Source: an uncultured Methanosarcinales archaeon (GTDB lineage: Archaea; Nanobdellota; Nanobdellia; Woesearchaeales; GW2011-AR9). Taken from it: a stretch of DNA of 63,052 nt. Of the stretch, positions 2,806 through 62,190 are shown in pieces. Location of the stretch: assembly GCA_964598745.1 (NCBI GenBank), contig CAZRCV010000001.1, positions 1-63,052 on the forward strand. Reading direction: 5' to 3'. The notes beneath the pieces were generated by a model, which did not search any database, was not told the DNA's origin, and saw nothing but the letters and a program-made list of their open reading frames with translations. Each line of letters starts with the position of its first letter. Position 1 is the stretch's first letter. Position numbers and translations under genes: made by a program.

Positions 2806-2843
2806 ATTACTAGTTTTTAGTTAAACGAAGGCGATTCACCTTC

Positions 2844-3302: not shown

Positions 3303-3314
3303 ATCACTTCAGAC

Positions 3315-4157: not shown

Positions 4158-4159
4158 GT

Positions 4160-4660: not shown

Positions 4661-4669
4661 AATGAAATT

Positions 4670-5134: not shown

Positions 5135-5141
5135 TTTTAAT

Positions 5142-6319: not shown

Positions 6320-6326
6320 TGTTAAT

Positions 6327-6725: not shown

Positions 6726-6767
6726 TCAAATTGGCATTATTAATCATATATATCTACTCGCAAGGCC

Positions 6768-6998: not shown

Positions 6999-6999
6999 T

Positions 7000-7515: not shown

Positions 7516-7516
7516 C

Positions 7517-8173
7517 TTAATTTACCACGAATAAATAATTTTTAGCAGTAGTGATTTCTTCATCACCAACTTTACAGATGGCCTTTCCTTCTTCAATTTT
7601 TTTTAATTCTCCTGTTAAACCGCTGTGTTTGCCCAAAATTAACATTATTCGGGCTCCTGTCTTTAACGGAAGCACTGAAACTATTTTAAAGGAAGGAACT
7701 TCTAACTTAACACTATCACCAATATGCAGGGAGTTGTCAGCAATAATATTCCGGCCATCATGCAACCTAAATTGCAATAATCCTTTACGCACTAGGTTTT
7801 TGCCAACAACCTTACAAATTTTGTACTTATTTTGTTCCCTATCTGTTAAAGATATTTGCAGCCTACCTTGAGAATCAAGTTTCAATTGGTAATATTTACT
7901 TAATACAGGAATACTAATCGTGTCACCTAAACCAACGATAAAACGATGATCTACTCTTCTTTGCCCATCAACTAGAATTTCATTATCATGAAGCAACCTC
8001 TTTGCTTCACCCATAGTTTGAGCCAAAGCTAAATAATTTCTCAAAATTAATCCCAAAGGCAAGCCTAAATTTAAACTGTGCGCTCCTGAATTGGGTCGAA
8101 CCACAAAGACATTATTTTTTCTGTCGATGAGCCAGGTTTTAGGTGCAGTTATTGCTTTTAAATGATTTTTCAT
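7517..8173 (-). CDS. rps4e: 30S ribosomal protein eS4
   Basis: HLKAITAPKTWLIDRK..FVVRPNSGAHS N-terminus typical of eS4. Synteny. Confidence 0.9.
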   Translation of the reverse strand: MKNHLKAITAPKTWLIDRKNNVFVVRPNSGAHSLNLGLPLGLILRNYLALAQTMGEAKRLLHDNEILVDGQRRVDHRFIVGLGDTISIPVLSKYYQLKLDSQGRLQISLTDREQNKYKICKVVGKNLVRKGLLQFRLHDGRNIIADNSLHIGDSVKLEVPSFKIVSVLPLKTGARIMLILGKHSGLTGELKKIEEGKAICKVGDEEITTAKNYLFVVN

Positions 8174-8661
8174 TTTTGTTCCGCTTGAGCCGGTAATGAT
8201 TTTCTAACTTTTACTGCATTTGCCCCTCCCTTAATTAGTTTAGCTGGTTTTACTGACTTACTTGAAGTGGAGGAAGATATTTTTGCTTTTTCTAATTTAA
8301 GCTTTCTTTTTTTGCCGGCTAAATCCAATTCCACAATCATGACATTAGAAGGAGATATTCCCACTTGAATCTTTGAACCATCTTTCTTGATTATTTCAAT
8401 TCCAGCAAGATGTATTTTCTCTTTCTTCAAATTAACTTTTTCTACCTTTCCCTCCCTGGATTTGAATTGTCCACGCATAACCTTAACTCTATCACCTGTT
8501 TTAACTTGAATATTTCTTAAGCCATATTTATCTCTCAGAACCGGAGCAAGATGAACATGCATAAATTTTTGCTTAATGTGAAGCGGAGCATTATACCTAT
8601 ATTTCCGTTGTTTCCGCAGCTGTGTACTGCTTTTCCAATGTGTTGAAAATTTTATTTTCAT
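8170..8661 (-). CDS. rpl24: 50S ribosomal protein uL24 with a basic/Ser-rich C-terminal tail
   Basis: KOW motif VKTGDRVKVMRGQFKSREGKVEKV. Synteny uL14-uL24-eS4. Confidence 0.85.
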   Translation of the reverse strand: MKIKFSTHWKSSTQLRKQRKYRYNAPLHIKQKFMHVHLAPVLRDKYGLRNIQVKTGDRVKVMRGQFKSREGKVEKVNLKKEKIHLAGIEIIKKDGSKIQVGISPSNVMIVELDLAGKKRKLKLEKAKISSSTSSKSVKPAKLIKGGANAVKVRKSLPAQAEQK

Positions 8662-8666
8662 TTTAT

Positions 8667-9074
8667 TTAAACAACCATGCTAGCCACTTTAGCAATAGCC
8701 GGCCAACGTTCAGCTACTTCTTTGGCAATAGGTCCCTTAAACAAGGTGCCCTTAGGATTGCCTTTTTCATCTTTTAAGACAACTGCAGCATTATCTTCAA
8801 ACTTAATCCTGGTTCCATCTGGCCTGCGATATTCCTTTCTTTGCCGTACAATTACAGCAGGGACCACCGTTTTTCTCATTTCCAATTTGCCCTTCTTCAC
8901 TGAAGCTAAAACTAAGTCGCCAACACCTGCCGATTGAATACGTCCCCTAACTACATTATAACCAATTCCTTTAACAGCAAAAATCTTCAAAACTTTAGCA
9001 CCAGAATTATCACAGGTTGGAACCAGTGCCTCCAATGGCAAAGCCCTGGTGACTCTGCTCCTGAAAGCCTTCAT
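8667..9074 (-). CDS. rpl14: 50S ribosomal protein uL14
   Basis: CDNSGAKVLKIFAVKG..GDLVLASVKKG..FEDNAAVVL motifs. Confidence 0.95.
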   Translation of the reverse strand: MKAFRSRVTRALPLEALVPTCDNSGAKVLKIFAVKGIGYNVVRGRIQSAGVGDLVLASVKKGKLEMRKTVVPAVIVRQRKEYRRPDGTRIKFEDNAAVVLKDEKGNPKGTLFKGPIAKEVAERWPAIAKVASMVV

Positions 9075-9544
9075 ACTAAACCACCCATTGCTTTTTTATC
9101 TTTTGATTTCTTTAAGGCCAGCTTAGCGATAGATTTCTTAGATGTCTTCTCAATTATAGGTTCTGCCAATTTATTTTTTTCCAACTTCCCTTTTTCAAAT
9201 ATTTTTATAATTACGTGGTGTTTGGTCTTGCTAAGCGGCCTGGTTCTGGCTACTAAAACTTCTTGACCAATCTGAGCGTTAACTGCAGGCGGATTGTGCA
9301 CCCTTAACCTAGACCTGTTGATAGCATACCGCTCATATTTAGGAATGAACTTCGATTCAAACCACTCAATGGTCGCAGATTTGTTGGTATCTTTCTTAAT
9401 TACCTTGCCTTTTAGCAATTCTTTTTTTACCACCAAACTGCCAGTAAATGGGCAATTTTTATCATAGTTAGAACTATCATAAGCTCCCTGCGGAGCCGGT
9501 ATCCCCAACACTGTTTCCTTAACTTTGTATGTTTGTGGTTTCAC
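9071..9544 (-). CDS. rps17: 30S ribosomal protein uS17 with a Lys-rich C-terminal tail
   Basis: CPFTGSLVVK..KGKVIKKDTNKSATIEW..YERYAINRSRLRVHNPP..VLVARTRPLSKTK core. Confidence 0.85.
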   Translation of the reverse strand: MKPQTYKVKETVLGIPAPQGAYDSSNYDKNCPFTGSLVVKKELLKGKVIKKDTNKSATIEWFESKFIPKYERYAINRSRLRVHNPPAVNAQIGQEVLVARTRPLSKTKHHVIIKIFEKGKLEKNKLAEPIIEKTSKKSIAKLALKKSKDKKAMGGLV

Positions 9545-9798
9545 TTTCCTTTCAACCTGTCTTCTGGCTTTTTGATTAAATCTACTCCCTTTATTATCTT
9601 ATCATGGTGTTCCAACCTTAAAACTAAACCTGATTTTAATAGGATTGCCTCCTTCCCTTTAGTGAGAACCACCAAAGTAGCTTTAGTTTCATTTATCACT
9701 TTCCCTTGAAGACCAATCAAGCTTCTGTTGGTAGCATTTACAATGATGATTCTTTTGCCGATTAATTCCCCAGGAAAAATTTCCAAGTTAGATTTCAT
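9541..9798 (-). CDS. rnp1: RNase P protein component 1 (Rpp29/Pop4 family)
   Basis: ELIGKRIIIVNATNRSLIGLQGKVINETKATLVV..PEDRLK matches the Rpp29 Sm-like core. Canonical slot between SUI1/uL29 and uS17. Confidence 0.75.
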   Translation of the reverse strand: MKSNLEIFPGELIGKRIIIVNATNRSLIGLQGKVINETKATLVVLTKGKEAILLKSGLVLRLEHHDKIIKGVDLIKKPEDRLKGK

Positions 9799-9837
9799 GA
9801 GTTCTTTTTGCCTTGCACCAAATTAAATTTGGCACAA

Positions 9838-10140
9838 CTACTGGATTTCAATGGTCTCTTCAGGAAAACCTAACTCCGTTAACGCCTGTTTCACGCGAGA
9901 TTTATGGTCTCCTTGCAGTTCGATATTTCCGCTTTTAGCCGTTCCACCACAGGCAAACTTCGATTTCAATTTTTTAAAGATTTCTTCGATGTTAGCCTCA
10001 CGCTTTATACCATTGATAACCGTATACATTTTTCCAAACTTTCTTTTCTCAATTTTAACGGTTATTTTTTGCTGCTCCCGCGCGATCGTCTCACAAACGC
10101 ACAAGTCTAAAGGTAATCCACATTGATTACATACTGCCAT
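9838..10140 (-). CDS. Translation initiation factor aIF1 (SUI1 family)
   Basis: N-terminal CxxC..CxC knuckle, then ITVKIEKRKFGKMYTVINGI and ACGGTAK..IELQGDH, the SUI1 core. Conserved slot in the archaeal cluster. Confidence 0.85.
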   Translation of the reverse strand: MAVCNQCGLPLDLCVCETIAREQQKITVKIEKRKFGKMYTVINGIKREANIEEIFKKLKSKFACGGTAKSGNIELQGDHKSRVKQALTELGFPEETIEIQ

Positions 10141-10341
10141 TTATTTTGCATCACGCTCCAATTTTTTAGCAGCGGTCAAGAGCCTGGCAATATTCTTTTT
10201 AGCTTGTTTTAGGCTACCAGGATTGGAAATGCTCCCTGTTGCCGACTGCACTCTTAACTTTAGCAGTTCCTTTTTAAATTCTCCCAATTTTTCAGCCAAT
10301 GCCACTGGAGAGAGATTTCTTATTTCTTTTGCAGCTTTCAT
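10141..10341 (-). CDS. rpl29: 50S ribosomal protein uL29
   Basis: 66-aa helical protein (LGEFKKELLKLRVQSATG). Follows uS3. Confidence 0.85.
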   Translation of the reverse strand: MKAAKEIRNLSPVALAEKLGEFKKELLKLRVQSATGSISNPGSLKQAKKNIARLLTAAKKLERDAK

Positions 10342-10343
10342 TT

Positions 10344-11237
10344 TTAATTTACTTTAATATCTTTATTATCGAAGGAATTGTTAATAATATTATTAGGTGA
10401 TCTTACTTTAGGCTCATCAGTTAATGAACTAATTTCTTCCTCGTTCTTTTTTTGTGAAGAGGGAAGGGGTGAATTTTCCTCAACAACAGAAAGGGGATTA
10501 GATTTGTCTACCTTAACTTTGTTTCTTGAACCAGCTTTTCGTCCGGAAACTTTGCGTTGAGGTTTAGCCTCAGTGCCGCTTAACGGCTCGGTAACATGGT
10601 CCTTGGAAGGAACGACGGCCTCTTGGGTTATGGTTATCGGTTGATCCAAAATTGTTACCGTGTCAGGCAACACTAAATCAGGTGGCATGATTGATACTTT
10701 TATGCCTATTATCCCGCTCTTAAGCAAAGCACTAGCTTTAGCACTCCTTACACCATAAATAGCAATATCTCCGCATTTTTTTAAATATCCTTGGTAAAAC
10801 CGCCAACTCTTAGCCCTAGCGCCAGGAATTTTTCCGGAAATTACTAATTCTATTCCCAGAGCTCCAGAATTAAGAACATTTTCCATAATTTTGTGGCCAA
10901 TGCTTTTGAACCTAGCCGAACCAAACTTTTCTAGCGAGCTGGCAATTTTTTCAGCTACAATAGCCGCATCAAGAAAAACGTTTTTAACTTCTACAATTTC
11001 AATCTGCGGGTTTTCCAAATTAAAAATTTTCTTTAATTTTTGAGTTAAATCCCTGATGTTGGAACCTTTTGAACCAACAATTAAACTGGGTCGATTAGCA
11101 TGAATGATGACTTTCTCTCCCAAAGGTATTTTTTTAAGAGTGACTTGAGAAATACCGGCTCCTTTAAGGGTGCGTTCTACTTCTTTTCGAATATAATACT
11201 CTTTAGTTTTTTGTTGAATAAATTCTCGTTCAATCAT
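10344..11237 (-). CDS. rps3: 30S ribosomal protein uS3 with a ~90-aa low-complexity C-terminal tail
   Basis: KH-domain segment RPSLIVGSKGSNIRDL and GIELVISGKIPGARAKSWRFYQGYLKKCGD core. Confidence 0.9.
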   Translation of the reverse strand: MIEREFIQQKTKEYYIRKEVERTLKGAGISQVTLKKIPLGEKVIIHANRPSLIVGSKGSNIRDLTQKLKKIFNLENPQIEIVEVKNVFLDAAIVAEKIASSLEKFGSARFKSIGHKIMENVLNSGALGIELVISGKIPGARAKSWRFYQGYLKKCGDIAIYGVRSAKASALLKSGIIGIKVSIMPPDLVLPDTVTILDQPITITQEAVVPSKDHVTEPLSGTEAKPQRKVSGRKAGSRNKVKVDKSNPLSVVEENSPLPSSQKKNEEEISSLTDEPKVRSPNNIINNSFDNKDIKVN

Positions 11238-11806
11238 TTTGAATAGTCTCCAGCGTGATTACTAGACATAGGTTTATGATCATTAACTTTGACCGGGTTT
11301 GTTTTAGCTTTTTCAGAGGAATGAGATTCGTTTCTGTTAGCTGTTTTGGAGCTAGCTTTAGATATTTTTGTTGAATCTTTACCCGCAATTTCACTTACTT
11401 CAATCTCCAAGTTCGTTCGCTTGGTAGCATGGCGAAACCTGCCACCGGTAAAGGGTATTGAAGCTAAATTAGCCATAAGTTTAGTAATTTTTAACCGTGC
11501 TGTGTTCAAGCCTTGGGCTTGAGCATTAGCCTCAACAGAGTGAATTAATTTTAAAAATTGCCGGGCGGCTTTTTCTGGATACCTTCCAGCAGCCATGGTT
11601 CTTTTATGAGCCACATTCTGTTTATATGTTTTGAAAGGAATAGCCCTTCGCAAGGTTACAACATTCTCTAAGATTTTCCTGGCTGCGGCTGTGCTTTTAT
11701 AGCGAATAGCTTTGCTTATTTCTACACTATGCTTAAATGACATGGTTACATCTAGCGATTTGGCCTTAGCCAAATGTCCTTTTTCAACTATAGGTGTAAT
11801 TTTCAT
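11234..11806 (-). CDS. rpl22: 50S ribosomal protein uL22 with a Ser/Lys-rich C-terminal tail
   Basis: SFKHSVEISKAIR..AARKILENV..IPFK..HKR core. Synteny uS19-uL22-uS3. Confidence 0.85.
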   Translation of the reverse strand: MKITPIVEKGHLAKAKSLDVTMSFKHSVEISKAIRYKSTAAARKILENVVTLRRAIPFKTYKQNVAHKRTMAAGRYPEKAARQFLKLIHSVEANAQAQGLNTARLKITKLMANLASIPFTGGRFRHATKRTNLEIEVSEIAGKDSTKISKASSKTANRNESHSSEKAKTNPVKVNDHKPMSSNHAGDYSK

Positions 11807-11808
11807 TT

Positions 11809-12189
11809 TTATCTAGCCGATACAGCTTTACTGGATCTGGTGGCGCCAATACCCGCGGCACTGTGTGTTACAACTTTCCTAGTTAAAGCAAATTCTCCTA
11901 AATAATGGCCTAACATCTCTGAAGTGATTTCCACGCGCTGAAACTCCTTGCCATTGTAAACACCGAGAGTCATCCCTATCATTTTAGGAATAATCACCAT
12001 GTCCCGGCAATGAGTTTTGATATTCTTATCCCCCGCTTCAACCCGTTTTAACAATCTTTTCTGGGCTTCCGTAAAGCCGCGTTTGATCGAACGCCTCATG
12101 CGTGCTGAAACCAGATTAGCAAATATATCCAAGCTCAAAGTTTTAACTTCTTCTTCGCTTCTTCCCTGCCATTTAAATTCTTTTGCCAT
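11809..12189 (-). CDS. rps19: 30S ribosomal protein uS19
   Basis: THCRDMVIIPKMIGMTLGVYNGKEF..ITSEMLGHYLGEFALTRK motif. Confidence 0.9.
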   Translation of the reverse strand: MAKEFKWQGRSEEEVKTLSLDIFANLVSARMRRSIKRGFTEAQKRLLKRVEAGDKNIKTHCRDMVIIPKMIGMTLGVYNGKEFQRVEITSEMLGHYLGEFALTRKVVTHSAAGIGATRSSKAVSAR

Positions 12190-12195
12190 TTTATT

Positions 12196-12621
12196 TTACC
12201 TAAATTTAATTTCACTTCGTCTTGAGTTTGTTTCATCACCATCACTAACTGAAGAAGCACTCACGCCCGGTGTTGGGTGGAATAATTTATTTTTGAAATA
12301 AGCCACACCATTACTAGTGCCAACAAGGCCTCGCCGACAGGAAAAAGTTAAATAAACAGTTCCTACGGGAACCTCATTACCCTGACTATCTCTACTTATT
12401 AAAGTGTCTATTCTCTGGATATTACCATTATACCTTAATCTAAGGTTACTATCAAAATAGCTATCACAAGTATAATTACTGGAAATACCTTTAGCTACTT
12501 GCACTGGATAAAACATTGAGCTAAGATTATTTTCAGTATCCCTTCTTCTAGCTTCCAGCACTCCAGCATATGCCCACACCGTAGCGGCTGCAACAAATCC
12601 TAATTTATGTATCAATGACAT
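12196..12621 (-). CDS. Orphan membrane-anchored/secreted protein (141 aa) embedded between uL2 and uS19
   Basis: The ATG (MSLIHKLGFVAAATVWAYAGVL..) lies 1 nt after the uL2 TAA, and the stop lies 6 nt before the uS19 ATG. There is one N-terminal hydrophobic helix, and I recognise no family. The longer 12654 start in the ORF track would overlap uL2. Confidence 0.6.
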   Translation of the reverse strand: MSLIHKLGFVAAATVWAYAGVLEARRRDTENNLSSMFYPVQVAKGISSNYTCDSYFDSNLRLRYNGNIQRIDTLISRDSQGNEVPVGTVYLTFSCRRGLVGTSNGVAYFKNKLFHPTPGVSASSVSDGDETNSRRSEIKFR

Positions 12622-12622
12622 T

Positions 12623-13324
12623 TTATTTCTTCCTGCCTGTCCTGCGCGGCGCAATTTTCCCTACTTTACGCCCTGGCGGCGCGCTTCTCGGTGATAACGT
12701 TGGCCTACCTTTGATATGCGAACATGAGCCACCAAAGGGGTGGTTAACTGCATTCATGGAAATACCGCACACCCTTGGATAAACTTTATTGCGCGCTTTC
12801 ATTTTATAGTATCTAGCTCCGGCTTTCAAGAAAGGTTTGTCCTTTCGGCCAGAGCCAGCCAAAATTCCCACCGAAGCTCGGCAATCAGGCAATAATAATT
12901 TTTCCTTTCGTGAAGGCAACAATACTCTGATGGCGGTTTCCGACTTAGCAATGACACGAGCCGAAGAACCGGAAGTTCTAACTAATTTTCCTCCATCTCC
13001 TGGCCGCAACTCAATATTGTGAATTAAGGTTCCTTCCGGAATATGTTTTAAAGATAAAACGTTTCCTGGCCTGATTTCTGCTTCAGAACCAACATTAATT
13101 TGATCACCAACAGCAATACCTTCCGGAGCAACAGTTCTGGCTTTAATTCCACTATTAAAATAAGCTACCTCCATTAAGGGAGCAGTATGCGCTGGACAAT
13201 GAATAAGATCGACTATCAAACCGGCTTGGGCGGGATGTTTAGATGGCCCTTTAAATCTAAATTTGGGAGTCTTATAAGTAAGCGAACCGCGCCCTCGTCT
13301 TTGTTGTATTAGTTGCTTACCCAT
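12623..13324 (-). CDS. rpl2: 50S ribosomal protein uL2
   Basis: GNVLSLKHIPEGTLIHNIELRPGDGGKLVRTSG and MNAVNHPFGGS motifs. Confidence 0.95.
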   Translation of the reverse strand: MGKQLIQQRRGRGSLTYKTPKFRFKGPSKHPAQAGLIVDLIHCPAHTAPLMEVAYFNSGIKARTVAPEGIAVGDQINVGSEAEIRPGNVLSLKHIPEGTLIHNIELRPGDGGKLVRTSGSSARVIAKSETAIRVLLPSRKEKLLLPDCRASVGILAGSGRKDKPFLKAGARYYKMKARNKVYPRVCGISMNAVNHPFGGSCSHIKGRPTLSPRSAPPGRKVGKIAPRRTGRKK

Positions 13325-13654
13325 TTATATTAACCCCAGATCCGCGCTTACATCAGAAGCTGATTTATCAGCGCTTAACTTAACATAAGCCTTTTTTTGC
13401 CCGTCAAAGGAATTTTGCAGGTTAACCTTTGTTACTGTTACTTTAAACATTTCTTGCACCGCTCTCTTGATATCCGGCTTGCTAGCTTGCCTATCGACCA
13501 CAAAAACTAGGGTATTGGCAAACTCTATTTTACGGATGTTTTTTTCAGTAGATAAAGGAAATTTAATAATTTGGTAAGGATCAAAACTAGCAGAAACCTT
13601 AGCCTTAACTTCTGATGCTGTTGATTTAGATGATTTTGATTTTTTCGAAGTCAT
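13325..13654 (-). CDS. rpl23: 50S ribosomal protein uL23 (Ser/Lys-rich N-terminal extension)
   Basis: IKFPLSTEKNIRKIEFANTLVFVVDRQASKPDIKRAVQEMFKVTVTKVN core. Confidence 0.85.
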   Translation of the reverse strand: MTSKKSKSSKSTASEVKAKVSASFDPYQIIKFPLSTEKNIRKIEFANTLVFVVDRQASKPDIKRAVQEMFKVTVTKVNLQNSFDGQKKAYVKLSADKSASDVSADLGLI

Positions 13655-13664
13655 TTTTTATAAT

Positions 13665-14474
13665 TCATACAAATAATTTCTCTTTGTCCATAGTTTCGAT
13701 GGCGTTCTTTGTCCATAAAGTAATGCGGCCGGGCATAGTTCCAGGAGCTAACAATTCTATATTTAATGATTTAGCTGAAACAACATCTATCCCGGCAATA
13801 TTAGCTGCCGCACGAATCACAGCACAGTTGTCATCACCCACCACAATTAACAAACCTTTTTTCCGTTGATATCTTCTTCCACGTAATTTTCCTAAGCCTG
13901 CCCGCACTTTTTTAATTAATGACCGTTCTAATTCCTCGCCAAAACCCAATAATATTAATATTCTTTTAACTTGACTGGTTTTGGCCAGAGATTCAAAATC
14001 ATTATCAATAATAAAGGGATAATCTTCGGGAAGATAATGCCCCCTATTTTTTACAATAGCCCTACTCACAACTGCCGATACTGCTGATCTGATGGCCTTA
14101 GAAGCTTCTTTTTTGTTAATTTTTCTTGCCCAAATTCGTTCTGCTTTGGGAGGATGCGCTCTCCTACCGCCAACGGTTTGCGCAGTAAATGCTCCTACCC
14201 ACGAAAATCTTGTTCCGCGGCGAGATAAAATCTTACGCCGCACACGGCTAATGCCGAATCCGTAAGTCCCCCTATATTTGCGGCGCCGTTTGCTAGTTTT
14301 AGAAGAAGAACGCATACCTGCGCCTGGATGTCCCCCATAGGGTTGCCTAGAGGCGCTCTGTAAAGCTTGAACTGCGCGTTTAATTAAATCTGGACGATAA
14401 GCTTCGGAAAATTGTTTAGGTAATTGTTGCTCGCCTATCTTCTTAGATTCGATATTTCGTATTGGTAGTTTCAT
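13665..14474 (-). CDS. rpl4: 50S ribosomal protein uL4
   Basis: RQPYGGHPGAGMRSS..GTYGFGISRVRR..GGRRAHPPK motifs. Synteny uL3-uL4-uL23. Confidence 0.9.
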   Translation of the reverse strand: MKLPIRNIESKKIGEQQLPKQFSEAYRPDLIKRAVQALQSASRQPYGGHPGAGMRSSSKTSKRRRKYRGTYGFGISRVRRKILSRRGTRFSWVGAFTAQTVGGRRAHPPKAERIWARKINKKEASKAIRSAVSAVVSRAIVKNRGHYLPEDYPFIIDNDFESLAKTSQVKRILILLGFGEELERSLIKKVRAGLGKLRGRRYQRKKGLLIVVGDDNCAVIRAAANIAGIDVVSAKSLNIELLAPGTMPGRITLWTKNAIETMDKEKLFV

Positions 14475-14475
14475 A

Positions 14476-15441
14476 TTAATTACTCAAAGATATATAGCGC
14501 ACCTCTGGCGCAGATTTAGGTATTTTAGAGTTAACTCTAATCGCAGAAGTCAACAGCACTGCCCGTTTTTGGGGGCCAATAACTGAACCTTTTAACAATA
14601 AATAATGACTTTTTATTAAACCATAGTGGGTAATGCCCCCGTTAGGATTGATCTTCTTGCCATCCTCACCAAGGCTAATAATCTGCTTATTGTATTCTGT
14701 TCTTAAATGATAACCCATCTTTCCGGCCTGAGCTACAGTAAACTCTACTCGTTTAGGCGTCCATGAGCCCAAAGTAGCTATTCCCCGTTTAGTTTTTTCG
14801 GCCTTGTGTTGCCTTATGGGCACACCAAACCGTTTAACTGTACCTTGCCAACCTTTGCCCTTGCCCACGCCGTGCACATCTACGGACATTCCTGGATCAA
14901 AAACAGAGGAAATGGGAACTTCTTTACCTAACAGGGATTTAGCATAATTTAATTTATCTTCTTTATTGCCGCCTAACGCTATTTCGATCATCTTCGGTTT
15001 TTTTGTGCCAATCCCTGTTTTTTCCGGAGCAGAATAAACTACCAACCGAATGTCGTCAAACTCAAAGCCTGCTTCAAGTGGCTTTGATTTTTTAGCTAAG
15101 GGTATCTTTCTACCCAGTTCTTTGCCTAAATTAGTTCCAAGAACAACATTTATTTTTTTTACACCGTAACTAGTATTTTTATAGAAAGCAACGCCAGCCA
15201 CCCGCAGCGGTGGGCACTCTATTATTGTCACTGGACAGAAAATTTCTTCTCCCTTAGTAAGAGATTTTGGCCGGTTGTCAACTATTTGCAAGTGAGTCAT
15301 GCCTGCTTTGTAACCAATAAAGCCTAATAATTTAACTTTTGATTCAGAAGCCCAAGAGCGCACCCTAACTAGTGAATGCTTAGACCTCTTCCGAGGCCAA
15401 AATTGCATACTTCCTCTTCTGGGATGGCTTACTTTTGGCAT
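14476..15441 (-). CDS. rpl3: 50S ribosomal protein uL3
   Basis: HPRRGSMQFWPRKR..GYKAGMTH..GKGWQGTVKRFGV motifs. First gene of the cluster. Confidence 0.95.
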   Translation of the reverse strand: MPKVSHPRRGSMQFWPRKRSKHSLVRVRSWASESKVKLLGFIGYKAGMTHLQIVDNRPKSLTKGEEIFCPVTIIECPPLRVAGVAFYKNTSYGVKKINVVLGTNLGKELGRKIPLAKKSKPLEAGFEFDDIRLVVYSAPEKTGIGTKKPKMIEIALGGNKEDKLNYAKSLLGKEVPISSVFDPGMSVDVHGVGKGKGWQGTVKRFGVPIRQHKAEKTKRGIATLGSWTPKRVEFTVAQAGKMGYHLRTEYNKQIISLGEDGKKINPNGGITHYGLIKSHYLLLKGSVIGPQKRAVLLTSAIRVNSKIPKSAPEVRYISLSN

Positions 15442-16060: not shown

Positions 16061-16930
16061 ATGAGATACAAGTTTGTTAACATTCTTGGAAAGTTCCTCT
16101 TTGATGAAAAATTAAATATCATCTCAGTAAAAGACGATTCTTCTGCTTTGCCGCTGCCGCCAGAAAAAATTCCGGCCATTTTGTCCAGTTTTAAAGACAA
16201 AAAGTACTTCGCCAAATTTTATCAGGAAAACCTCAAATTAACTAGAGAAGCCATCAAAAATGCTGTAAATGAGGATCAACTATTAATGCAAACTATTTGT
16301 AACATCGGAGAACTAGATAAAGTTTCTAATTTGTTAATTAAGAGGCTGAGGGAGTGGTACTCATTATACCTGCCAGAACTATCAGAATTAGTTACAGATC
16401 ACGAACAATTCTTAGAGTTGACTAAACAAACTAAAACTGCTCTTTTAAAGAAATTTAACCTTTCTGAGACAATGGGTGCAGATTTGCTACCGGCCCATTT
16501 AGAACAAATGAAATTATTGTGCCAACAGATAATCAACATTTACGAGTTAAGAAAATCTCATGAAACATACCTCAAAAATATCATGCAAAATCATTGTCCA
16601 AATTTGTTAGAGTTGGCTGGAGCAACCATCGGAGCCAAACTTATTGACTTAGCTAATGGTTTGAAACAATTAGCCCTGCTGCCAGCTTCTACTGTGCAAT
16701 TACTAGGAGCTGAAAAGGCCTTATTTAGGCACATTAAAACTGGATCCCGTTCGCCTAAGCATGGTATCATTATTAACCACCCACTAGTACAAGGTGTAAA
16801 TAGAAGCAAAAAAGGCAAAGCTGCGCGCATGCTAGCTGACAAATTATCCTTGTGCGCTAGATTAGATTACTTTAAAGGCGAACTTAAGGCTAAACAATAT
16901 CGCCAGGAGTTAGAAGAGGCTTTAAGATGA
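16061..16930 (+). CDS. nop5: C/D box sRNP core protein Nop5 (Nop56/58 family), short form
   Basis: Nop domain LLGAEKALFRHIKTGSRSPKHGIIINHPLVQ and KGKAARMLADKLSLCARLDYF. Upstream of fibrillarin, as in most archaea. Confidence 0.85.
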   Translation: MRYKFVNILGKFLFDEKLNIISVKDDSSALPLPPEKIPAILSSFKDKKYFAKFYQENLKLTREAIKNAVNEDQLLMQTICNIGELDKVSNLLIKRLREWYSLYLPELSELVTDHEQFLELTKQTKTALLKKFNLSETMGADLLPAHLEQMKLLCQQIINIYELRKSHETYLKNIMQNHCPNLLELAGATIGAKLIDLANGLKQLALLPASTVQLLGAEKALFRHIKTGSRSPKHGIIINHPLVQGVNRSKKGKAARMLADKLSLCARLDYFKGELKAKQYRQELEEALR

Positions 16931-51078: not shown

Positions 51079-51825
51079 ATGAAGCTAGTGTTAACAGAGC
51101 CAAAATACTTCAAAGAAAGTATCTCTATTATTTCAGAGCTAGTTTCAGAAGCCAAATTTAAGATAAACAAGGATGGCTTAGAGCTGATTGCTATGGATCC
51201 TGCTAATGTGGCCTTGGTTGTCTTCAAGCTTTTAAGCAGTTCTTTTACGGAATATGGAGTTAAAGAACCGGAAGAGGTAGCGATCAACCTTAACAGCCTG
51301 AAACAAATTCTGCGAAGAGCTAAGGGAGATGATATCCTTAAGATTGAAACAACAGAAGACAGCAAGTTAAAGATTGAAATGAAAGGCTCGACTGTTAGAT
51401 CTTTCTCCCTTCCTACCTTAGAAACAGACAGCCACGAACAAAAAGTTCCGGACTTAAATTTTCCCATAACTATTCAAACAGAAGCAGAGATTTTAACAGA
51501 ATCAATCGAAGATGTTAGTGTAGTGGCTGAATCTGTTACCTTTTTGGCAGAGAAAACAAAGTTATTCATAAAGGCAGAAGGTGATTTATCTAAGGCCTTT
51601 ATTGAAATTAAAGCAGATGACTTGACTAGTATAAATACAGATTCTAGCGACAAATTTAAAGGAAAATATTCCTTAGAATATCTCAAAAAAATGATAGCTG
51701 GAGGCAAATTAAGCGATAAGGTAAGTTTATGTTTTAATACAGATTATCCCTTAAAATTAGAATATAAAGTCACTGATCGGTTTTTACTTAGTTTTATTTT
51801 AGCACCAAGGGTAGATAATGACTAA
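51079..51825 (+). CDS. pcn: DNA polymerase sliding clamp (PCNA)
   Basis: 248-aa two-domain protein (..GLELIAMDPANVALVVFKL.., ..KYSLEYLKKM..). GGGGT SD-like motif upstream. Confidence 0.9.
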   Translation: MKLVLTEPKYFKESISIISELVSEAKFKINKDGLELIAMDPANVALVVFKLLSSSFTEYGVKEPEEVAINLNSLKQILRRAKGDDILKIETTEDSKLKIEMKGSTVRSFSLPTLETDSHEQKVPDLNFPITIQTEAEILTESIEDVSVVAESVTFLAEKTKLFIKAEGDLSKAFIEIKADDLTSINTDSSDKFKGKYSLEYLKKMIAGGKLSDKVSLCFNTDYPLKLEYKVTDRFLLSFILAPRVDND

Positions 51826-51916: not shown

Positions 51917-52678
51917 ATGGAAGAACAAAAAACCGAGAGCAAAGCTGAGCCGGCTAACACCACCCAGCTTAATCAGGCAGCTCAAAAACAAAAGCCAGAT
52001 TTCTTTTGGAAAATAACTACGGTAGTATTGATTGTGATATTAGCTTTCTTCGCTTTTAGAGGACCAAATCTTACTGGTAGCCTTACAGGAAACGCGGTTA
52101 AAGATACTGCAGATAACAACAATGTTCTTGGAGCTGCTGCACCCGCACGTGTTGACTTTCAAAAAGTGATTTACACTAATGACCATATACTGGGAAATGA
52201 AAATGCACCAGTAACAATCATTGAATGGAGTGATTTTGAATGTCCGTTCTGCGCTAGGTTTCATTTAGAAACGTCTGGAGCATTGAAAGACCAATATGTC
52301 AAGTCAGGAAAAGTTAAATTCATCTACAAAAACTTTCCTTTAAATTTCCACCAAAATGCTCAGAAAGCTGCAGAGGCTGCTGAATGTGCCTCTGATCAAG
52401 AAAAGTTCTGGGAAATGCATGATCTGTTGTTTGAACAAGGAGTTCAAGGTGGAGTTGTGACCTTCAAGCAGTATGCTAAACAACTTGGATTGGACACTGC
52501 TAAGTTCGACAAGTGTTTAGATTCGGGAGACAAAATTGCTAAAATTCAGAAGGACATGGCTGATGGAGGGAAATCTGGAATTCAAGGAACACCAGGATTT
52601 TTAGTTAACGGCTTAATGGTCAGCGGAGCACAGCCGTTGGTTGTATTCCAACAAGCCATAGAAGCTGAACTAAATTAA
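51917..52678 (+). CDS. Membrane-anchored DsbA-like thiol:disulfide oxidoreductase
   Basis: GGAGGGGT SD upstream. One TM helix. WSDFECPFCARF CxxC motif and GTPGFLVNG cis-Pro region typical of the DsbA/Thioredoxin_4 family. Confidence 0.75.
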   Translation: MEEQKTESKAEPANTTQLNQAAQKQKPDFFWKITTVVLIVILAFFAFRGPNLTGSLTGNAVKDTADNNNVLGAAAPARVDFQKVIYTNDHILGNENAPVTIIEWSDFECPFCARFHLETSGALKDQYVKSGKVKFIYKNFPLNFHQNAQKAAEAAECASDQEKFWEMHDLLFEQGVQGGVVTFKQYAKQLGLDTAKFDKCLDSGDKIAKIQKDMADGGKSGIQGTPGFLVNGLMVSGAQPLVVFQQAIEAELN

Positions 52679-52761: not shown

Positions 52762-53127
52762 TTAATCTAATGGACAGTTTGTTTTAGCGCTTAGGGCTTC
52801 TAAAGAAAGTTGCCCAGCAACTCTATCTCCTGGTGCAAATTCCCATGTAGGATATGATTCAATTCCAGCCTGCTTGCACACTTCAGTTTGGCTTTTACCA
52901 TCCGGCAAAGAACATTCTACATAACTTATTTTATCCCAGGCATCACCAAATAACTTTTTCTGTTGTTGACAATGAGAACACCAAAAGGCTCCGAACATTA
53001 CTACTCCTTTTTCTGAAAGACAAGATGCCAGATTCTCCTTAGCCTGCTTAGAAATATTATCAGAACAACCAGTAATTGAAACTAAGAAAATAGTTATTAA
53101 AACGAAGCCTATTGATTTCCTAATCAC
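52762..53127 (-). CDS. Thioredoxin-like lipoprotein (resembles VKOR-associated Trx-like domains)
   Basis: Signal peptide with ITGCS. FGAFWCSHCQQQKKLFG CxxC motif and YPTWEF cis-Pro loop. Confidence 0.6.
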   Translation of the reverse strand: MIRKSIGFVLITIFLVSITGCSDNISKQAKENLASCLSEKGVVMFGAFWCSHCQQQKKLFGDAWDKISYVECSLPDGKSQTEVCKQAGIESYPTWEFAPGDRVAGQLSLEALSAKTNCPLD

Positions 53128-53197: not shown

Positions 53198-53611
53198 CTA
53201 AATCTTCAAAATTAACTGTTTTAATTTAGAACTTTTTTGTCTGTTTTGACAATAGGAAGGTATGCGTTTAATCTCTGGAGCTAAGCCCAAAGACATTAAT
53301 TTCTGGCGAAGTTCCAATTCTGATACTGGGTGGTCATAACCTAAACAAATAACGTCTGGTTTTCTTTGTAAAATAATTTTGAAGTGATCTGTCTGGTCAC
53401 CAAGAACTGCTTCGTCAACTGCCTTAAGGCTTTGAATAAGTTTTAGCCGCTCTCGTTCTTGAAAAATAATCGGTTTTTTTTGTTTTTGTTTAGTTTTGTC
53501 CCTGGCAATTACCACAATAAGATAATCTCCTTGTTTCCTAGCTTGTTCCAAATAATAAAGATGGCCTAAGTGAAGAAGATCAAACGTTCCAAAGCACATC
53601 ACTGTTTTCAT
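53198..53611 (-). CDS. ribL: Cytidylyltransferase-family nucleotidyltransferase, probably FAD synthase RibL
   Basis: CFGTFDLLHLGHLYYLEQA.. (HxGH), VVIARD, and overall collinearity with archaeal RibL (~140 aa). Confidence 0.65.
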   Translation of the reverse strand: MKTVMCFGTFDLLHLGHLYYLEQARKQGDYLIVVIARDKTKQKQKKPIIFQERERLKLIQSLKAVDEAVLGDQTDHFKIILQRKPDVICLGYDHPVSELELRQKLMSLGLAPEIKRIPSYCQNRQKSSKLKQLILKI

Positions 53612-53645
53612 GGTTTATTATAGCAAGACTTCGCGAGGTTGTAGT

Positions 53646-55712
53646 TTAGCCCTTCTTTTCCACCAACCGGGCCTGTTTAATTATTAATCTTCCGCTGTTA
53701 CGAGAATCCATCATTTTATCAGAAGCAGTAATTTCAATTCGCCTATTAAACAAAGGACCGTCTAATACTAGACTCTCATATTCCCCCCCTTCACCAGCCA
53801 TGTTGCTGTGAATCAAGGATTTAAGTTTTATTAACGATTCCGAATTAATTTCTCTACCCAACCATGTTTCATCCATGCCATCAGCAGCAATAGCCGTAAT
53901 AATAACTACAAATCCTGCCTTAATTACTTCCTGCAGGTGTGTTTCCTGTTGTTTATGCCATAAAGGAGCAAAAATTTTCAAGCCTAACTTGTCACAAATC
54001 TTTTCTATCCTGTCTCTTTGATAAGTGGAAAATAAGGCTCCTGAAACAATCCCCGTAAGAGCATATTGTCCTTTAGCTCTTTTAAGAGCTATTTCTAAGT
54101 CTATTAATTCTTCTTCTTTTTCGCCGTTGGTTTCTTGAACTAGCAAAGGAATCCCCATCGCCTCAGACTGCAATTGCACCAACTCTGTCCCTGCCTTCTG
54201 AAACATATAAGAGTGCTGATTTTTAGGTTTTAAAGTAATTAAACAAGCAATATCATAATTTTGTTTTTTCATGATATAAGCCGCAGATGTAGAATCCTTT
54301 CCAGAAGAAAATAAAACGCCTAATTTCTGGTTAGGCTTAGAATAAAAAGTTTTAAGGTACTGTGATTTTGAAGAAATTTTATGTTGTTTGGCTAATTTAC
54401 CCAAGGCCCAGTCAAATCTAGACCCATACTGGGCAGCTGTTTTTTTACGGAAGGCAACCTGCTCCGGCAAGCCTTTTTCTAAAGCTAGATGGCGAAGAAT
54501 GAGCTTAGTGACTGGTTCTTTTATTTTATAGCGGCCAGGAATTTTCAGAACATAACTTACCAACTCTTGGTCTAGATATGGAAGACGTAATTCTAATCCA
54601 TTTTCCATAGTTATCACGTCATCGCGGTAAAGGTCGCGTTCATATAATTTTAATAAACCAGAAAGACATTCCTGGTTAATGTTAGAAGATGATTTATGAC
54701 GATCATAACCAGCAAATATTTCTTCACTGCCTAATCCAGAAAAAATAACCTTGCATCCCGCATTCCCAGCAGCTTGGCAAGCTATAAAAAATGGCAAAGC
54801 CACACCAACTTTAACTACATTAGAATCTTCAATTAATGGCACAATTTGCTGTAAATAGAACGGAATTTCCTTAAGCTTTATTGCAACTATAACTAAATTT
54901 AACCCTAGCTTTTCCGCTGCTAACTTAGCTGCAATTAAATCTGGAGCTTGGGAGTTACCATCTTCTAAAATGGCAGTATAACAAGTGAAATCATAATTAT
55001 GGTCTTTAAAATATTTAGCTAAATAAGTCGAATCAACACCACCTGAAAACAGCAAGCCAAATTTATGGGCTGGCACTCTTTTTTGAATGGCTTTATCCAA
55101 CAAAAGAGAGGTATGCTGTTTAATCTGTAAGTAAGTTTCTTTATGCTCTGGCAGATAACTAAAAAATTCACGGTATTGGAATAACAAAGTATTTGTAGGC
55201 GGGATATAAGTAGCGATTTGCCGAGGATTAAGTTCTATAATGTCAGTATAACCTAACTGTTGTAAAACTTTGGCTTCAGAAGCAAAAGCAAAATTACCTT
55301 GGTTATGGCTATACCATAAGGGCTTTTCGCCAAGGATGTCCCTAACCAATATTAACCGTTGATTTTGATAATACGCCAGTGCAAATACCCCCTCCAGTTC
55401 ACCTATTTTCTGCAAACCAAAGCGATCCAGAAACCTTAACAACAATTCTGCGTCATTTCTGGCATTGAAACTATATTTTTTATCTAATTCTTGCCAATTA
55501 TAGATTTCACAATTAGTAGTTATGGCCCCGCCCTCCTGCAGCGGCTGCGGAACTTTGTTTACCACTGCATGCAAAGTATGGCCCATTACCGCCGTGGAAT
55601 TTAACTTTAAACAAGCTGAGCCATCTCTGCCCCTATTTTTAAGCAAAACCAAAGCTTGTTGTACCTGCTCCAAGGCTAGATGGTGATTAAATACTCCTAT
55701 TATGCCACACAT
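53646..55712 (-). CDS. Fusion protein: class II glutamine amidotransferase + asparagine-synthase-type PP-loop domain + Dph6/MJ0570-type diphthine-ammonia ligase domain
   Basis: MCGIIGV (Cys2 Ntn nucleophile). First PP-loop LLFSGGVDSTYLA. C-terminal ~220 aa has a second PP-loop VLFSSGKDSTSAAY, GIVSGALFSTYQRDRIEKICDKLGLKIFAPLW and GEGGEYESLVLDGP, typical of Dph6. Confidence 0.75.
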   Translation of the reverse strand: MCGIIGVFNHHLALEQVQQALVLLKNRGRDGSACLKLNSTAVMGHTLHAVVNKVPQPLQEGGAITTNCEIYNWQELDKKYSFNARNDAELLLRFLDRFGLQKIGELEGVFALAYYQNQRLILVRDILGEKPLWYSHNQGNFAFASEAKVLQQLGYTDIIELNPRQIATYIPPTNTLLFQYREFFSYLPEHKETYLQIKQHTSLLLDKAIQKRVPAHKFGLLFSGGVDSTYLAKYFKDHNYDFTCYTAILEDGNSQAPDLIAAKLAAEKLGLNLVIVAIKLKEIPFYLQQIVPLIEDSNVVKVGVALPFFIACQAAGNAGCKVIFSGLGSEEIFAGYDRHKSSSNINQECLSGLLKLYERDLYRDDVITMENGLELRLPYLDQELVSYVLKIPGRYKIKEPVTKLILRHLALEKGLPEQVAFRKKTAAQYGSRFDWALGKLAKQHKISSKSQYLKTFYSKPNQKLGVLFSSGKDSTSAAYIMKKQNYDIACLITLKPKNQHSYMFQKAGTELVQLQSEAMGIPLLVQETNGEKEEELIDLEIALKRAKGQYALTGIVSGALFSTYQRDRIEKICDKLGLKIFAPLWHKQQETHLQEVIKAGFVVIITAIAADGMDETWLGREINSESLIKLKSLIHSNMAGEGGEYESLVLDGPLFNRRIEITASDKMMDSRNSGRLIIKQARLVEKKG

Positions 55713-55767
55713 AAGTGACTAATTTACTAAGTTCTTTTAAAAGTTTAGCCTAAATTTTTAATAATAA

Positions 55768-56868
55768 TTATTTTAAATGAATTTCCAGAATGTCATTATC
55801 AGCCAAGGAATGGTCCAATCTTCTGAATTGTTGGCCGGGAAACTTAGCGCTCTTTCCCCAAAGCCTGGCAAACTTAAATCTAGACACAAAATCTTTATGC
55901 GTTTTTTCGCAAACATCTTTAATAGTAGACTTTTGTTTTAATATCATTGGTTCCTGCAAATCAGCCTCTTTCCTTGGTTCTTTTAGGTAAATTCTGATAA
56001 AATTTAACTTTTGAAAAATTAATTCTTTTAAATTATCAATATTAAGATTTAGTTCTGCAGAAACAGCAATATCAGCATTTAATTGTTTTTTTATTTCTGA
56101 AACTTGTGCTGCAGTAGCCAAGTCAGCTTTGCTAATACAGGTGATAGCAGGCAAATATTTTCTGTTGCTTTCAATGCAGTCAATGAAATCATCCACATCA
56201 ATCGGACTTCTGATTAATACTTCTGCATTCATAATTCTGAACTCACGCAAAATCTCTTTTATGGTGTTATCATCTAAATCGATAACTACCGTTTTGCCTA
56301 CTTGGATGCCGCCTGAACTTTTCCTCTTTATGAAAACTTCAGGTTTAGTTTTGTTTAACCTAATTCGCGATTCCCATACTTCTTTCAACATTGCTGGATA
56401 ATGCTCCGGGTGGTTAATATCAACAATAATCAACACCATATCAGCATTTTGAATTACCGCTAGAACCTCTTTTCCCCTGCCACGGCCGGAAGCAGCCCCG
56501 GAAACTATTCCAGGCACATCCAATATTTGAATCTTAGCTAGATTATAATTAAGCATGCCTGGAATTACCGTTAGCGTAGTAAAAGCATAGGCTGCAACTT
56601 CAGAGTTTGTTCCAGTAAGGGTGTTTAAAAGAGTTGATTTTCCGGAGGAAGGAAACCCAAGCAACAGCACTGTAGCATCGCCAGACTTGCGAACAGAATA
56701 ACCATGTTCAGATTTGCCTGTTTTTTGACTTGAACGCAACTCCTGTTTTTCCCTAAGCTGAGAAATTTTAGCTTTTACTATGCCAATATGCCCCTGTGTT
56801 GCCTTGTTATATTTGGTTTTTTTTAACTCTTCTTGTAATTCCTTAATTTTTTTAGTATAGTCAACCAT
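55768..56868 (-). CDS. DRG-family (Obg-like) GTPase with a C-terminal TGS domain
   Basis: G1 GFPSSGKSTLLN, G3 DVPG, G4 CISKADL. N-terminal helical KATQGHIG..KAKISQLR. C-terminal TGS-like ..DNDILEIHLK. Confidence 0.85.
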   Translation of the reverse strand: MVDYTKKIKELQEELKKTKYNKATQGHIGIVKAKISQLREKQELRSSQKTGKSEHGYSVRKSGDATVLLLGFPSSGKSTLLNTLTGTNSEVAAYAFTTLTVIPGMLNYNLAKIQILDVPGIVSGAASGRGRGKEVLAVIQNADMVLIIVDINHPEHYPAMLKEVWESRIRLNKTKPEVFIKRKSSGGIQVGKTVVIDLDDNTIKEILREFRIMNAEVLIRSPIDVDDFIDCIESNRKYLPAITCISKADLATAAQVSEIKKQLNADIAVSAELNLNIDNLKELIFQKLNFIRIYLKEPRKEADLQEPMILKQKSTIKDVCEKTHKDFVSRFKFARLWGKSAKFPGQQFRRLDHSLADNDILEIHLK

Positions 56869-61158: not shown

Positions 61159-62190
61159 CTAGTTATAACCAAGTTTAGCTATCTTTTCTAACTTACCTTT
61201 CTGTTTTTGGAATGGCTTTAACAGTTTATTTATCTCCTTAGCCACTGCCATTTTTAAATCTAAAGGATGAAGCTGTTTTTTTACAAAATCTTCTTCTATC
61301 TTTAAGTACGTTTTGTAAACAATATTGCCACCAAAATTTGCCGGCCTTTCGACTACCAATGGTTCGCCGAGATCTTCTTTTAGAACCATAATTACATATT
61401 TTAAAAAAGCTAAGACCCCGTTATCTTCGACAACTCCTTCCGGACAATGCGCCTTATGTAGTTTTTGTTTGACATCCTGCGGAGAATATAACAAATCTAT
61501 TTTTGAGGCTGGTTCCGAAGCAGACATCTTTTTACCTAACAATCCGGGTATCAAAGGAGTCATTACTTCGATTCTTCGTTTATAACCAAGTCTGCTTAAA
61601 TTCTCGCGGGCAAACATTAAGATTTTCCTCTGGTCTATTCCACCCCCCTGGATATCAACTTGTAGGTATTCCTCATCCAAAGCTTGCATTAGGGGGTACA
61701 TCAAACTGCTTAACTTAGGATTATCACTAGATTTAACTACTTCCGAACCTGCGTGACGAGCTTCATTAACAGAAGTATACGTAGACAACTTAAGAACATC
61801 AAACCAGTAATTCTTACTTAACTGGAAATCGGAACCTTTTACAATCTCAAATTCTGCTAAGTCTGAGTTAATCGCCTTAAACATCAGCAAGATAGTATTT
61901 TTATAATGCTGAAACCGATGCTCCAATACATCCCAAGGAGTTTTATCTAGTGCGCCGTGGATATCGGCCAGCAACAGCTTAACTTTGAACCCCGCCTTAA
62001 GAAAGTCAGCCAATTTTAATACTGGCACAAAATAACCTATGTGTGGCCGGCCAGTTATGGACCAGCCCCAGAAGACTGACGGCTTTTTTTTGTTTTTTAA
62101 CAAATTTTTAAGCTCTTCTTCCGTAACTATCTCCTGCGTATTACGCTTAATTAACTGAAACCGATATTCTAAATCCATGAAATCTAGCAA
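61159..62190 (-). CDS. tyrS: Tyrosyl-tRNA synthetase
   Basis: GRPHIGYFVPVLKLADFLKAGFKVKLLLADIHGALD (HIGH region typical of archaeal TyrRS) and KMSAS. Confidence 0.85.
   Translation of the reverse strand: MLDFMDLEYRFQLIKRNTQEIVTEEELKNLLKNKKKPSVFWGWSITGRPHIGYFVPVLKLADFLKAGFKVKLLLADIHGALDKTPWDVLEHRFQHYKNTILLMFKAINSDLAEFEIVKGSDFQLSKNYWFDVLKLSTYTSVNEARHAGSEVVKSSDNPKLSSLMYPLMQALDEEYLQVDIQGGGIDQRKILMFARENLSRLGYKRRIEVMTPLIPGLLGKKMSASEPASKIDLLYSPQDVKQKLHKAHCPEGVVEDNGVLAFLKYVIMVLKEDLGEPLVVERPANFGGNIVYKTYLKIEEDFVKKQLHPLDLKMAVAKEINKLLKPFQKQKGKLEKIAKLGYN

Follow-up and report, generated by a model that had tools for sequence, protein, structure and literature searches.

What does an asparagine synthetase-like enzyme do when it is joined to the enzyme that completes diphthamide, and where would the ammonia from its glutaminase go? 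Diphthamide is a modification of elongation factor 2 (EF-2) that is conserved in archaea and eukaryotes, and is formed by Dph6, an ATP-dependent ligase that amidates diphthine on EF-2. To our knowledge, it has never been established where archaea obtain the nitrogen for this final reaction. We analysed a 63,052-nucleotide stretch of archaeal DNA (contig CAZRCV010000001.1 of GenBank assembly GCA_964598745.1; hereafter the window), in which a single open reading frame (ORF; positions 53646..55712, minus strand) combines a glutaminase, an AsnB-type PP-loop synthetase domain and a Dph6 domain. The ORF starts with ATG, codes for 688 aa and contains one stop codon, at its end. An earlier note, made from the letters of the sequence, had divided the ORF into these three parts and had held the architecture to be undescribed.

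Architecture and reality of the fusion

Reading of the ORF together with Pfam and NCBIfam searches agreed with the three-part division, and all motifs quoted in the earlier note, including SGALFSTYQRDRIE and GEGGEYESLVLDGP, were found in the protein. The class II N-terminal nucleophile (Ntn) glutaminase domain (GAT-II) covers residues 1-190 (55143..55712, minus strand, as for all features of this gene) and begins with MCGIIGV (residues 1-7). It is assigned by Pfam GATase_7/GATase_6, with the GATase_7 match at residues 55-151 (1.3e-19), and by alignments to E. coli AsnB (1CT9) and TsnB9 (7YLZ). The AsnB-type PP-loop synthetase domain follows at residues 195-455 (54348..55130), with its PP-loop SGGVDS at residues 223-228 (nt 55029-55046). 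Here, a Pfam Asn_synthase match over residues 204-344 (3e-41) is joined by residue mapping onto 1CT9 and human ASNS (6GQ3), family statistics and Foldseek. A short linker, FYSKPNQ (residues 456-462; 54327..54347), delimited by the conservation of its flanks and by a confident model, leads into the Dph6 domain (diphthine--ammonia ligase, DUF71/MJ0570-type) at residues 463-686 (53655..54326), which was assigned by Pfam, TIGR03679, comparison with PH1257 and PF0828, and Foldseek. The Dph6 PP-loop, SSGKDS, lies at residues 469-474 (nt 54291-54308). We regard the identity of these parts as very nearly certain.

An AlphaFold2 (AF2) model of the protein, with 120 homologues as input, has a mean predicted local distance difference test score (pLDDT) of 90.4 and a predicted TM-score (pTM) of 0.85. 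Confidence is maintained through the linker region, where the residue blocks of 451-470 have mean pLDDT values of 88-90. The glutaminase, AsnB-type and Dph6 domains are thus predicted to form one rigid body. A Foldseek search with this model found no solved structure spanning both the AsnB-like and the Dph6 parts.

The possibility that adjacent asnB-like and dph6 genes had been run together through faulty sequencing or assembly, a missed stop codon or a frameshift was addressed by comparison with homologues. The junction at the linker is in frame and lies inside a conserved stretch: among 120 homologues S450, N461, L464 and S469 are invariant, and Y452, L453, F456, Y457 and G465-F468 are kept in at least 90%. 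The best 120 clusters (90% identity) are all 650-746 aa long, with a query coverage of 94-100% and an identity of 59-66%; they are labelled Woesearchaeota or Nanoarchaeota, with 'diphthine--ammonia ligase' as the usual product name. A genome scan using one genome per GTDB species found a relative in at least 500 genomes. The best 80 of these loci, which were analysed, all code for an unbroken fusion (51-66% identity), and nearly all match residues 1 to ~686 in one stretch. When 1.84 billion cluster representatives were searched exhaustively, 831 matched at E <= 1e-30, and alignment to a family hidden Markov model (HMM) resolved three classes: full fusions (n=233), proteins lacking the glutaminase (n=44) and GAT+PP-loop proteins without Dph6 (n=35, some of which are fragments). 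More distant full-length fusions occur in Altiarchaeota and 'Ca. ainarchaeum' (Iainarchaeota). Since the architecture is unbroken in so many homologues, including 233 aligned full-length proteins from independent assemblies, and since the junction is conserved, a stop or frameshift lost at the junction in this one assembly is ruled out, by comparison with homologues and not by reads, and we consider the chance of an artefact negligible. The ORF is a genuine single gene of a Woesearchaeota-type DPANN archaeon.

Many of the best-matching genome records (loci L002, L004-L006, L014, L015 and others) are titled 'uncultured Methanosarcinales archaeon'. Their proteins are 55-64% identical to the window protein, as are those in named Woesearchaeota or Nanoarchaeota metagenome-assembled genomes, and the taxonomy given in the titles appears to be a placeholder or an error. 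Two family members deviate in layout: P0127 (1005 aa) has ~345 additional residues N-terminal to the glutaminase domain, and P0183 (899 aa) matches the query in four separate stretches. These may represent further fused domains or duplications.

The architecture itself is not new. De Crecy-Lagard et al. 2012 (Biol Direct 7:32, PMC3541065), who predicted that DUF71 is Dph6, reported a COG0367/AsnB domain N-terminal to DUF71 in three archaea (their Fig. 2C): Methanohalophilus mahii, Methanosalsum zhilinae and 'Ca. Nanosalinarum sp. J07AB56'. According to this literature, the fusions thus occur in Methanosarcinales and Nanohaloarchaeota (PMC3541065). This finding, together with the hundreds of such fusions now in public databases, usually named 'diphthine--ammonia ligase', overturns the view that the architecture was undescribed; it equally corrects the statement that archaeal Dph6 occurs only as a stand-alone protein (PMC3541065). 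The 2012 fusions and the window protein have the same order of domains, GAT-II, Asn_synthase PP-loop and DUF71/Dph6, in a single archaeal polypeptide, and the same role has been proposed for both. They differ in lineage, the window being of Woesearchaeota-type DPANN origin; the 2012 fusions are compared here from their published description. The AsnB part was described as GAT-II plus an Asn_Synthase PP-loop, and glutamine hydrolysis was proposed to give NH3 to both PP-loop enzymes (PMC3541065). In the published review of that paper, L. Aravind asked which of the PP-loop domains takes the ammonia and which reaction the AsnB-like one carries out (PMC3541065). Our literature searches found no later paper on this question. 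The protein is therefore of a known, uncharacterised kind, common in DPANN archaea, of which the window holds a Woesearchaeal member belonging to the AsnB-Dph6 fusion class noted in 2012.

The active sites of the three domains

The C-terminal domain scores 252.5 bits on NCBIfam Dph6_archaeal (TIGR03679; cutoff 197.3), over profile positions 2-218 of 218. Pfam Diphthami_syn_2 (PF01902) matches residues 463-682 over profile positions 2-218 of 219 (3.6e-60), and the earlier assignment of this domain to Dph6 was therefore borne out by both profiles. Its alignments to PH1257 and PF0828 (E 1e-49 and 3e-48) extend over the full length, and Foldseek superposed it on PH1257 (2D13) with a target-normalised TM-score of 0.94 and a root mean square deviation (rmsd) of 1.5 Å, and on 3RK1 with a TM-score of 0.92. 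More generally, the stand-alone archaeal proteins PH1257, PF0828 (3RJZ/3RK0/3RK1) and MJ0570 correspond to the C-terminal 225 aa of the window protein from end to end; identity to the solved stand-alone Dph6 structures is 35-40% in structural alignment, at target-normalised TM-scores of 0.88-0.94. The PP-loop and the SYM, GEKE, S-x-YQ and EGGE-x-E motifs are common to both, the last two appearing in the window as STYQR (nt 54015-54029) and EGGEYE (nt 53775-53792), which are near-invariant in the family. The obvious difference is that the window domain forms the C-terminal third of a 688-aa protein. A smaller one concerns the second PP-loop residue, which is Ser, Gly or Thr in the fusions (SSGKDS in the window) as opposed to the SGGKDS of two solved Dph6 proteins.

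This PP-loop is highly conserved in the 233 full fusions, with S469 present in 230, Ser, Gly or Thr at position 470, G471, K472 and D473 in 233 each, and S474 in 226. In PF0828, residues S44, Y45, E78, Y103, Q104, E183, E186 and E188 have been placed at the EF-2 interface and active site (PMC3541065). Their equivalents in the window protein, S501, Y502, E533, Y564, Q565, E641, E644 and E646, are invariant or near-invariant across the same 233 fusions. By all sequence and fold criteria at hand the domain is bona fide Dph6-type, and diphthine--ammonia ligase activity is predicted.

The N-terminal two thirds of the protein can be aligned with both human ASNS (6GQ3) and E. coli AsnB (1CT9), and residues were mapped onto these structures. 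The 1CT9 numbering matches that of the mutagenesis literature for E348 and K449, while the residue equivalent to G303 of the window protein, R324 in 1CT9 chain numbering, is elsewhere given as E. coli R325. Foldseek aligned the AsnB-like part with 1CT9 at a target-normalised TM-score of 0.81 (rmsd 3.0 Å). The two-domain fold is shared with the E. coli and human enzymes, as are the nucleophile and several further residues of the glutaminase. The nucleophile Cys1 of E. coli corresponds to C2 (nt 55707-55709), R30 to R27, N74 and E76 to N67 and E69 (N67-C68-E69, nt 55506-55514), and D98 to D87 (nt 55452-55454). In the synthetase domain, the E. coli PP-loop SGGLDS is present as SGGVDS, S346 and G347 as S325 and G326, D384 as D360, R387 as R363, K429 as K403 and K449 as K424 (nt 54441-54443).

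Other positions have changed. E. coli R49 is replaced by L47 (nt 55572-55574), an assignment on which the pairwise alignments with 1CT9 and 7YLZ concur, and G75 by C68. The segment T321-T322-I-R324 reads VKVG (V300, K301, G303; nt 54804-54815), so that T322 becomes Lys and R324 becomes Gly, and E348 is replaced by L327 within SGLGSEE (nt 54720-54740). The change from E. coli D351 (human D367) to E330 is conservative, and the family usually has Glu at this position. Furthermore, the C-terminal ~85-100 residues of AsnB are lacking from the module, and the Dph6 domain takes their place. The protein falls below both curated AsnB cutoffs, narrowly for NCBIfam asn_synth_AEB (TIGR01536; 254.4 against a cutoff of 267.1) and by far for the AsnB model NF006949 (210.5 against 499).

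Both the retained and the replaced residues are characteristic of the full fusions as a whole. Of the glutaminase residues, Cys2 is found in 225 of the 233, N67 in 228, E69 in 229 and D87 in 231, along with the altered L47 (225) and C68 (218). SGGVDS, S325, G326, D360, R363, K403 and K424 are each retained in at least 216. K301 is present in 230 and L327 in 206, with Glu at the latter position in none; indeed, Glu is found there in 0 of 376 aligned family proteins. E. coli AsnB and two bacterial AsnB proteins in the same alignment show R49, Arg at R324 (within TTIR or ALVR) and SGE or TGE, as expected. The position of human ASNS Arg-142, which reportedly gates the ammonia tunnel of that enzyme, is occupied by K130, invariant in the family alignment. 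The human equivalents of V300, G303 and L327 are T336, R339 and E364. In human ASNS the E364A, E364Q and D367A variants are inactive and T336I has almost no activity (Zhu et al. 2019, PMC6748925). As judged from these alignments, Cys2, N67, E69, D87, the PP-loop and the ATP/adenylate-binding residues S325, G326, D360, R363, K403 and K424 are under strong purifying selection, and the AsnB-like site has kept its predicted ATP machinery without the residues that are essential in canonical AsnB.

The Ntn Cys is replaced in a few members (P0148, P0191, P0214 and P0217, which begin MTRIIG, MTRIAG, MWGIVG and MVGIIA, respectively), and in P0191 the Dph6 PP-loop is also degenerate (NASIDS). Such members may have lost glutaminase activity, or errors in gene calling or sequencing may be the cause.

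The same signature was found outside the fusions. Methanosarcina-type organisms have short, unfused 'asparagine synthetase B family' proteins with Leu at R49, Lys at T322, Ser or Ala at R325 and Gln at E348. Examples of stand-alone proteins are P0407 (Methanosarcina sp. UBA5, 488 aa) and the Woesearchaeota-type P0170 (467 aa), which share with the N-terminal module of the window protein the small residue at R325, Gln or Leu at E348 and a similar length; they differ from the window protein in having neither a Dph6 domain nor a nearby dph6. The apparent class of GAT+PP-loop proteins consists partly of contig-end fragments, such as P0152, which is marked 'partial' and clusters with a 685-aa fusion, and conclusions were therefore drawn from P0170 and the methanogen proteins. 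P0407 passes TIGR01536 (298.5 against 267.1) and scores 283.6 on NF006949, and P0170 remains just below the TIGR01536 cutoff at 264.8; for comparison, the canonical bacterial AsnB P0414 scores 427.6 and 569.9 on the two models. Because stand-alone proteins of both methanogens and Woesearchaeota carry the same changes, the signature is an archaeal subfamily trait and not a degeneration specific to the fusion. A conclusion that the AsnB half cannot make asparagine was withdrawn, given that the methanogen proteins share the signature and P0407 passes an AsnB model.

The methanogen stand-alone genes are solitary, with unrelated genes around them. Few or no genes are called in the 0.8-1.2 kb upstream of these genes (7001-8467 in loci L088-L090), with a single 84-aa ORF (6497-6751) called in the gap of L090. 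Gaps of this length are unusual in archaeal genomes, and a regulatory element could lie there.

Forms without a glutaminase and the destination of the ammonia

The 44 proteins that lack the glutaminase (P0164, P0271-P0296 and others; loci L081-L085) are 458-524 aa long and begin with a Met of their own near query residue 200. We found no mention of this variant in the 2012 paper (PMC3541065). The main clade comprises ~30 clusters with 47-90% mutual identity, from many assemblies and on contigs of up to 262 kb. A distance tree resolves the 44 proteins into clades of 31, 6 and 3 plus four singletons, and the glutaminase is lost in at least two deep clades. A split gene was considered as the cause and rejected, as the upstream gene is divergent without a Pfam match and gene calling gave no GATase within 6 kb; a tblastn search near the glutaminase-less genes likewise found no remnant of the glutaminase (best E = 3.0).

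The AsnB-type adenylation site is conserved in these proteins, with each PP-loop position kept in 42-44 of the 44, K403 in 44, K424 in 42, R363 in 41 and D360 in 39. Since this conservation persists after loss of the glutaminase, the AsnB-type PP-loop domain appears to have an ATP-dependent role independent of it. Other residues have relaxed: E374 (E. coli E398, human E414) is kept in 25, R376 (E. coli R400, human R416) in 6, D381 (E. coli D405) in 21, and the family-specific Lys K301 in only 7 of the 44, as against 230 of the 233 full fusions. The relaxed residues are those that face the glutaminase domain in AsnB (structural roles from PMC6748925), and K301 would on this pattern be functionally tied to the glutaminase. 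An AF2 model of one glutaminase-less protein gave a confident rigid two-domain unit (pLDDT 92.5, pTM 0.85).

Of the readings of the full-length fusion, the one we rank first, and tentatively favour at a little less than an even chance, is that ammonia derived from glutamine is delivered to the Dph6 site. Glutamine would be hydrolysed at Cys2, and an interdomain tunnel as in AsnB would lead the ammonia to the AsnB-type PP-loop site. With all three domains predicted to be parts of a single rigid body, the Dph6 site next to it could be supplied as well, so that glutamine and not free ammonia would be needed to form diphthamide. The AsnB-type site would probably keep an ATP-dependent amidation of its own, whether non-canonical asparagine synthesis or amidation of another carboxylate. 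A shared glutaminase of this kind is suggested by the conserved fusion and linker, the confident model and the near-invariant glutaminase and adenylation residues, and the ammonia-supply idea published in 2012 is the same mechanism and is plausible. Glutaminases coupled to PP-loop amidoligases are familiar from GAT-QueC (in some Crenarchaeota), glutamine-dependent NAD+ synthetase and GMP synthetase, in which the glutaminase provides ammonia to an ATP-pyrophosphatase site where a carboxylate or an equivalent group is adenylated. These enzymes have one PP-loop domain per glutaminase, whereas the window protein has two, of different families. Yeast Dph6 (YLR143W) resembles it in that a Dph6 domain is fused to domains proposed to make ammonia locally (PMC3541065). 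The partners are, however, unrelated, being two C-terminal RidA-like domains, and there is no second PP-loop domain.

Several observations weigh against delivery of ammonia to Dph6. The Arg that is positioned to contact glutamine in the glutaminase of human ASNS (R48; PMC6748925), equivalent to E. coli R49, is Leu across the subfamily. No dph6 was found next to the stand-alone subfamily genes, either at the P0170 locus or at the Methanosarcina-type loci, so that the Rosetta-stone prediction of unfused members beside dph6 failed in both the Woesearchaeota and the Methanosarcina-type genomes. The glutaminase-less clades retain the fusion of PP-loop and Dph6, so that whatever maintains this fusion does not need the glutaminase, and the idea of a glutamine-dependent diphthamide synthetase is complicated accordingly. 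In an alternative reading, the organism's non-canonical glutamine-dependent asparagine synthetase and an ordinary ammonia-dependent Dph6 would share a chain for co-expression or stability, with no transfer of ammonia between them. The isolated methanogen relatives with their R49 to Leu, T322 to Lys, R325 to Ser/Ala and E348 to Gln changes, the score of P0407 above the AsnB equivalog cutoff and the genuine stand-alone form P0170 in Woesearchaeota all fit such an arrangement, and the glutaminase-less clades are easily explained as an ammonia-dependent AsnB domain plus Dph6. The bifunctional Asn/diphthamide enzyme offered as an option in the earlier note is weakened because residues essential in human ASNS are replaced (E364 by L327, T336 by V300), as is R339 (by G303); it retains some probability because methanogen relatives that carry the same changes resemble housekeeping AsnB. 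The window protein also lies under both AsnB equivalog cutoffs, and two functionally unrelated enzymes would not be expected to stay fused repeatedly and for so long in several phyla, to have a conserved linker or to be predicted as a rigid assembly. We rank this reading second and consider it rather unlikely.

The persistence of the PP-loop pair can also be taken at face value, with the AsnB-type site re-purposed as an obligatory ATP-dependent partner of Dph6 that does not activate aspartate. Possible roles for the site would be that of an ammonia relay or valve gated by ATP, or a second activity directed at EF-2; selection would act on the two PP-loop domains as a pair, with the glutaminase an optional add-on. 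By extension, the short stand-alone AsnB-like proteins of methanogens could be unrecognised, detachable diphthamide synthetase subunits that partner stand-alone Dph6. The subfamily-wide loss of the Asp-activating E348, T322 and R325 with retention of the ATP-binding residues argues for this, as do the continued fusion and conserved adenylation site after glutaminase loss, the confinement of relaxation to residues facing the lost glutaminase in at least two clades and the rigid model of the two-domain form (pTM 0.85). Against it, a 220-aa Dph6 alone suffices for most archaea, the stand-alone subfamily members are not gene-linked to dph6 and P0407 passes the AsnB model. We know of no precedent for a PP-loop site acting as a relay, and regard this third-ranked reading as improbable. 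None of the proposed models, including the favoured delivery of glutamine-derived ammonia to Dph6, on its own explains the lasting PP-loop+Dph6 fusion after glutaminase loss.

Genomic neighbourhood and implications

The fusion gene is flanked by two co-directional genes. Upstream, across a 55-nt gap, lies a DRG-type GTPase (55768..56868, minus strand; Pfam MMR_HSR1, MMR_HSR1_Xtn and TGS), and downstream, across a 34-nt gap, a 137-aa cytidylyltransferase-like protein (53198..53611, minus strand; Pfam CTP_transf_like). Homologues of the GTPase are present at 43 and of the cytidylyltransferase-like protein at 37 of 80 related loci, and this suggests that the three-gene run (53198-56868, minus strand) is a partly conserved gene order or an operon. 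A tblastn search of the 63-kb window found none of the three domains a second time, and neither dph2, dph5 nor asnS was found among the 20 window ORFs scanned with Pfam, the window being a small part of the genome.

Pfam further identified two class-I tRNA-synthetase genes of Trp/Tyr type (PF00579; 34411-35529 on the plus strand and 61159-62190 on the minus strand), PCNA (51079-51825) and Nop5 (16061-16930), and a large ribosomal-protein operon was recognised by eye at about 2300-15440 on the minus strand. The window fits a compact archaeal chromosome segment rich in information-processing genes. Directly downstream of the three-gene run, a small lipoprotein-like thioredoxin (52762-53127, minus strand) adjoins a gene (51917-52678, plus strand) whose DsbA-like product has a thioredoxin fold and a membrane segment at its N terminus. 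The pair suggests that disulfide bonds are formed outside the cytoplasm in a DPANN archaeon.

Beyond the 2012 description, the residue signature, the glutaminase-less clades and their pattern of relaxation are modest additions. Together, the residue losses and the persistence of the fusion without a glutaminase narrow the question posed in 2012, namely which PP-loop uses the ammonia and what role the AsnB-like one plays. For metabolic reconstructions of DPANN archaea, the names 'diphthine--ammonia ligase' or 'asparagine synthase', used alone, hide half of a ~700-aa protein. If the glutaminase does feed Dph6, the DPANN enzymes would be natural glutamine-dependent diphthamide synthetases, and would provide a convenient single-chain system for ammonia delivery among three active sites.

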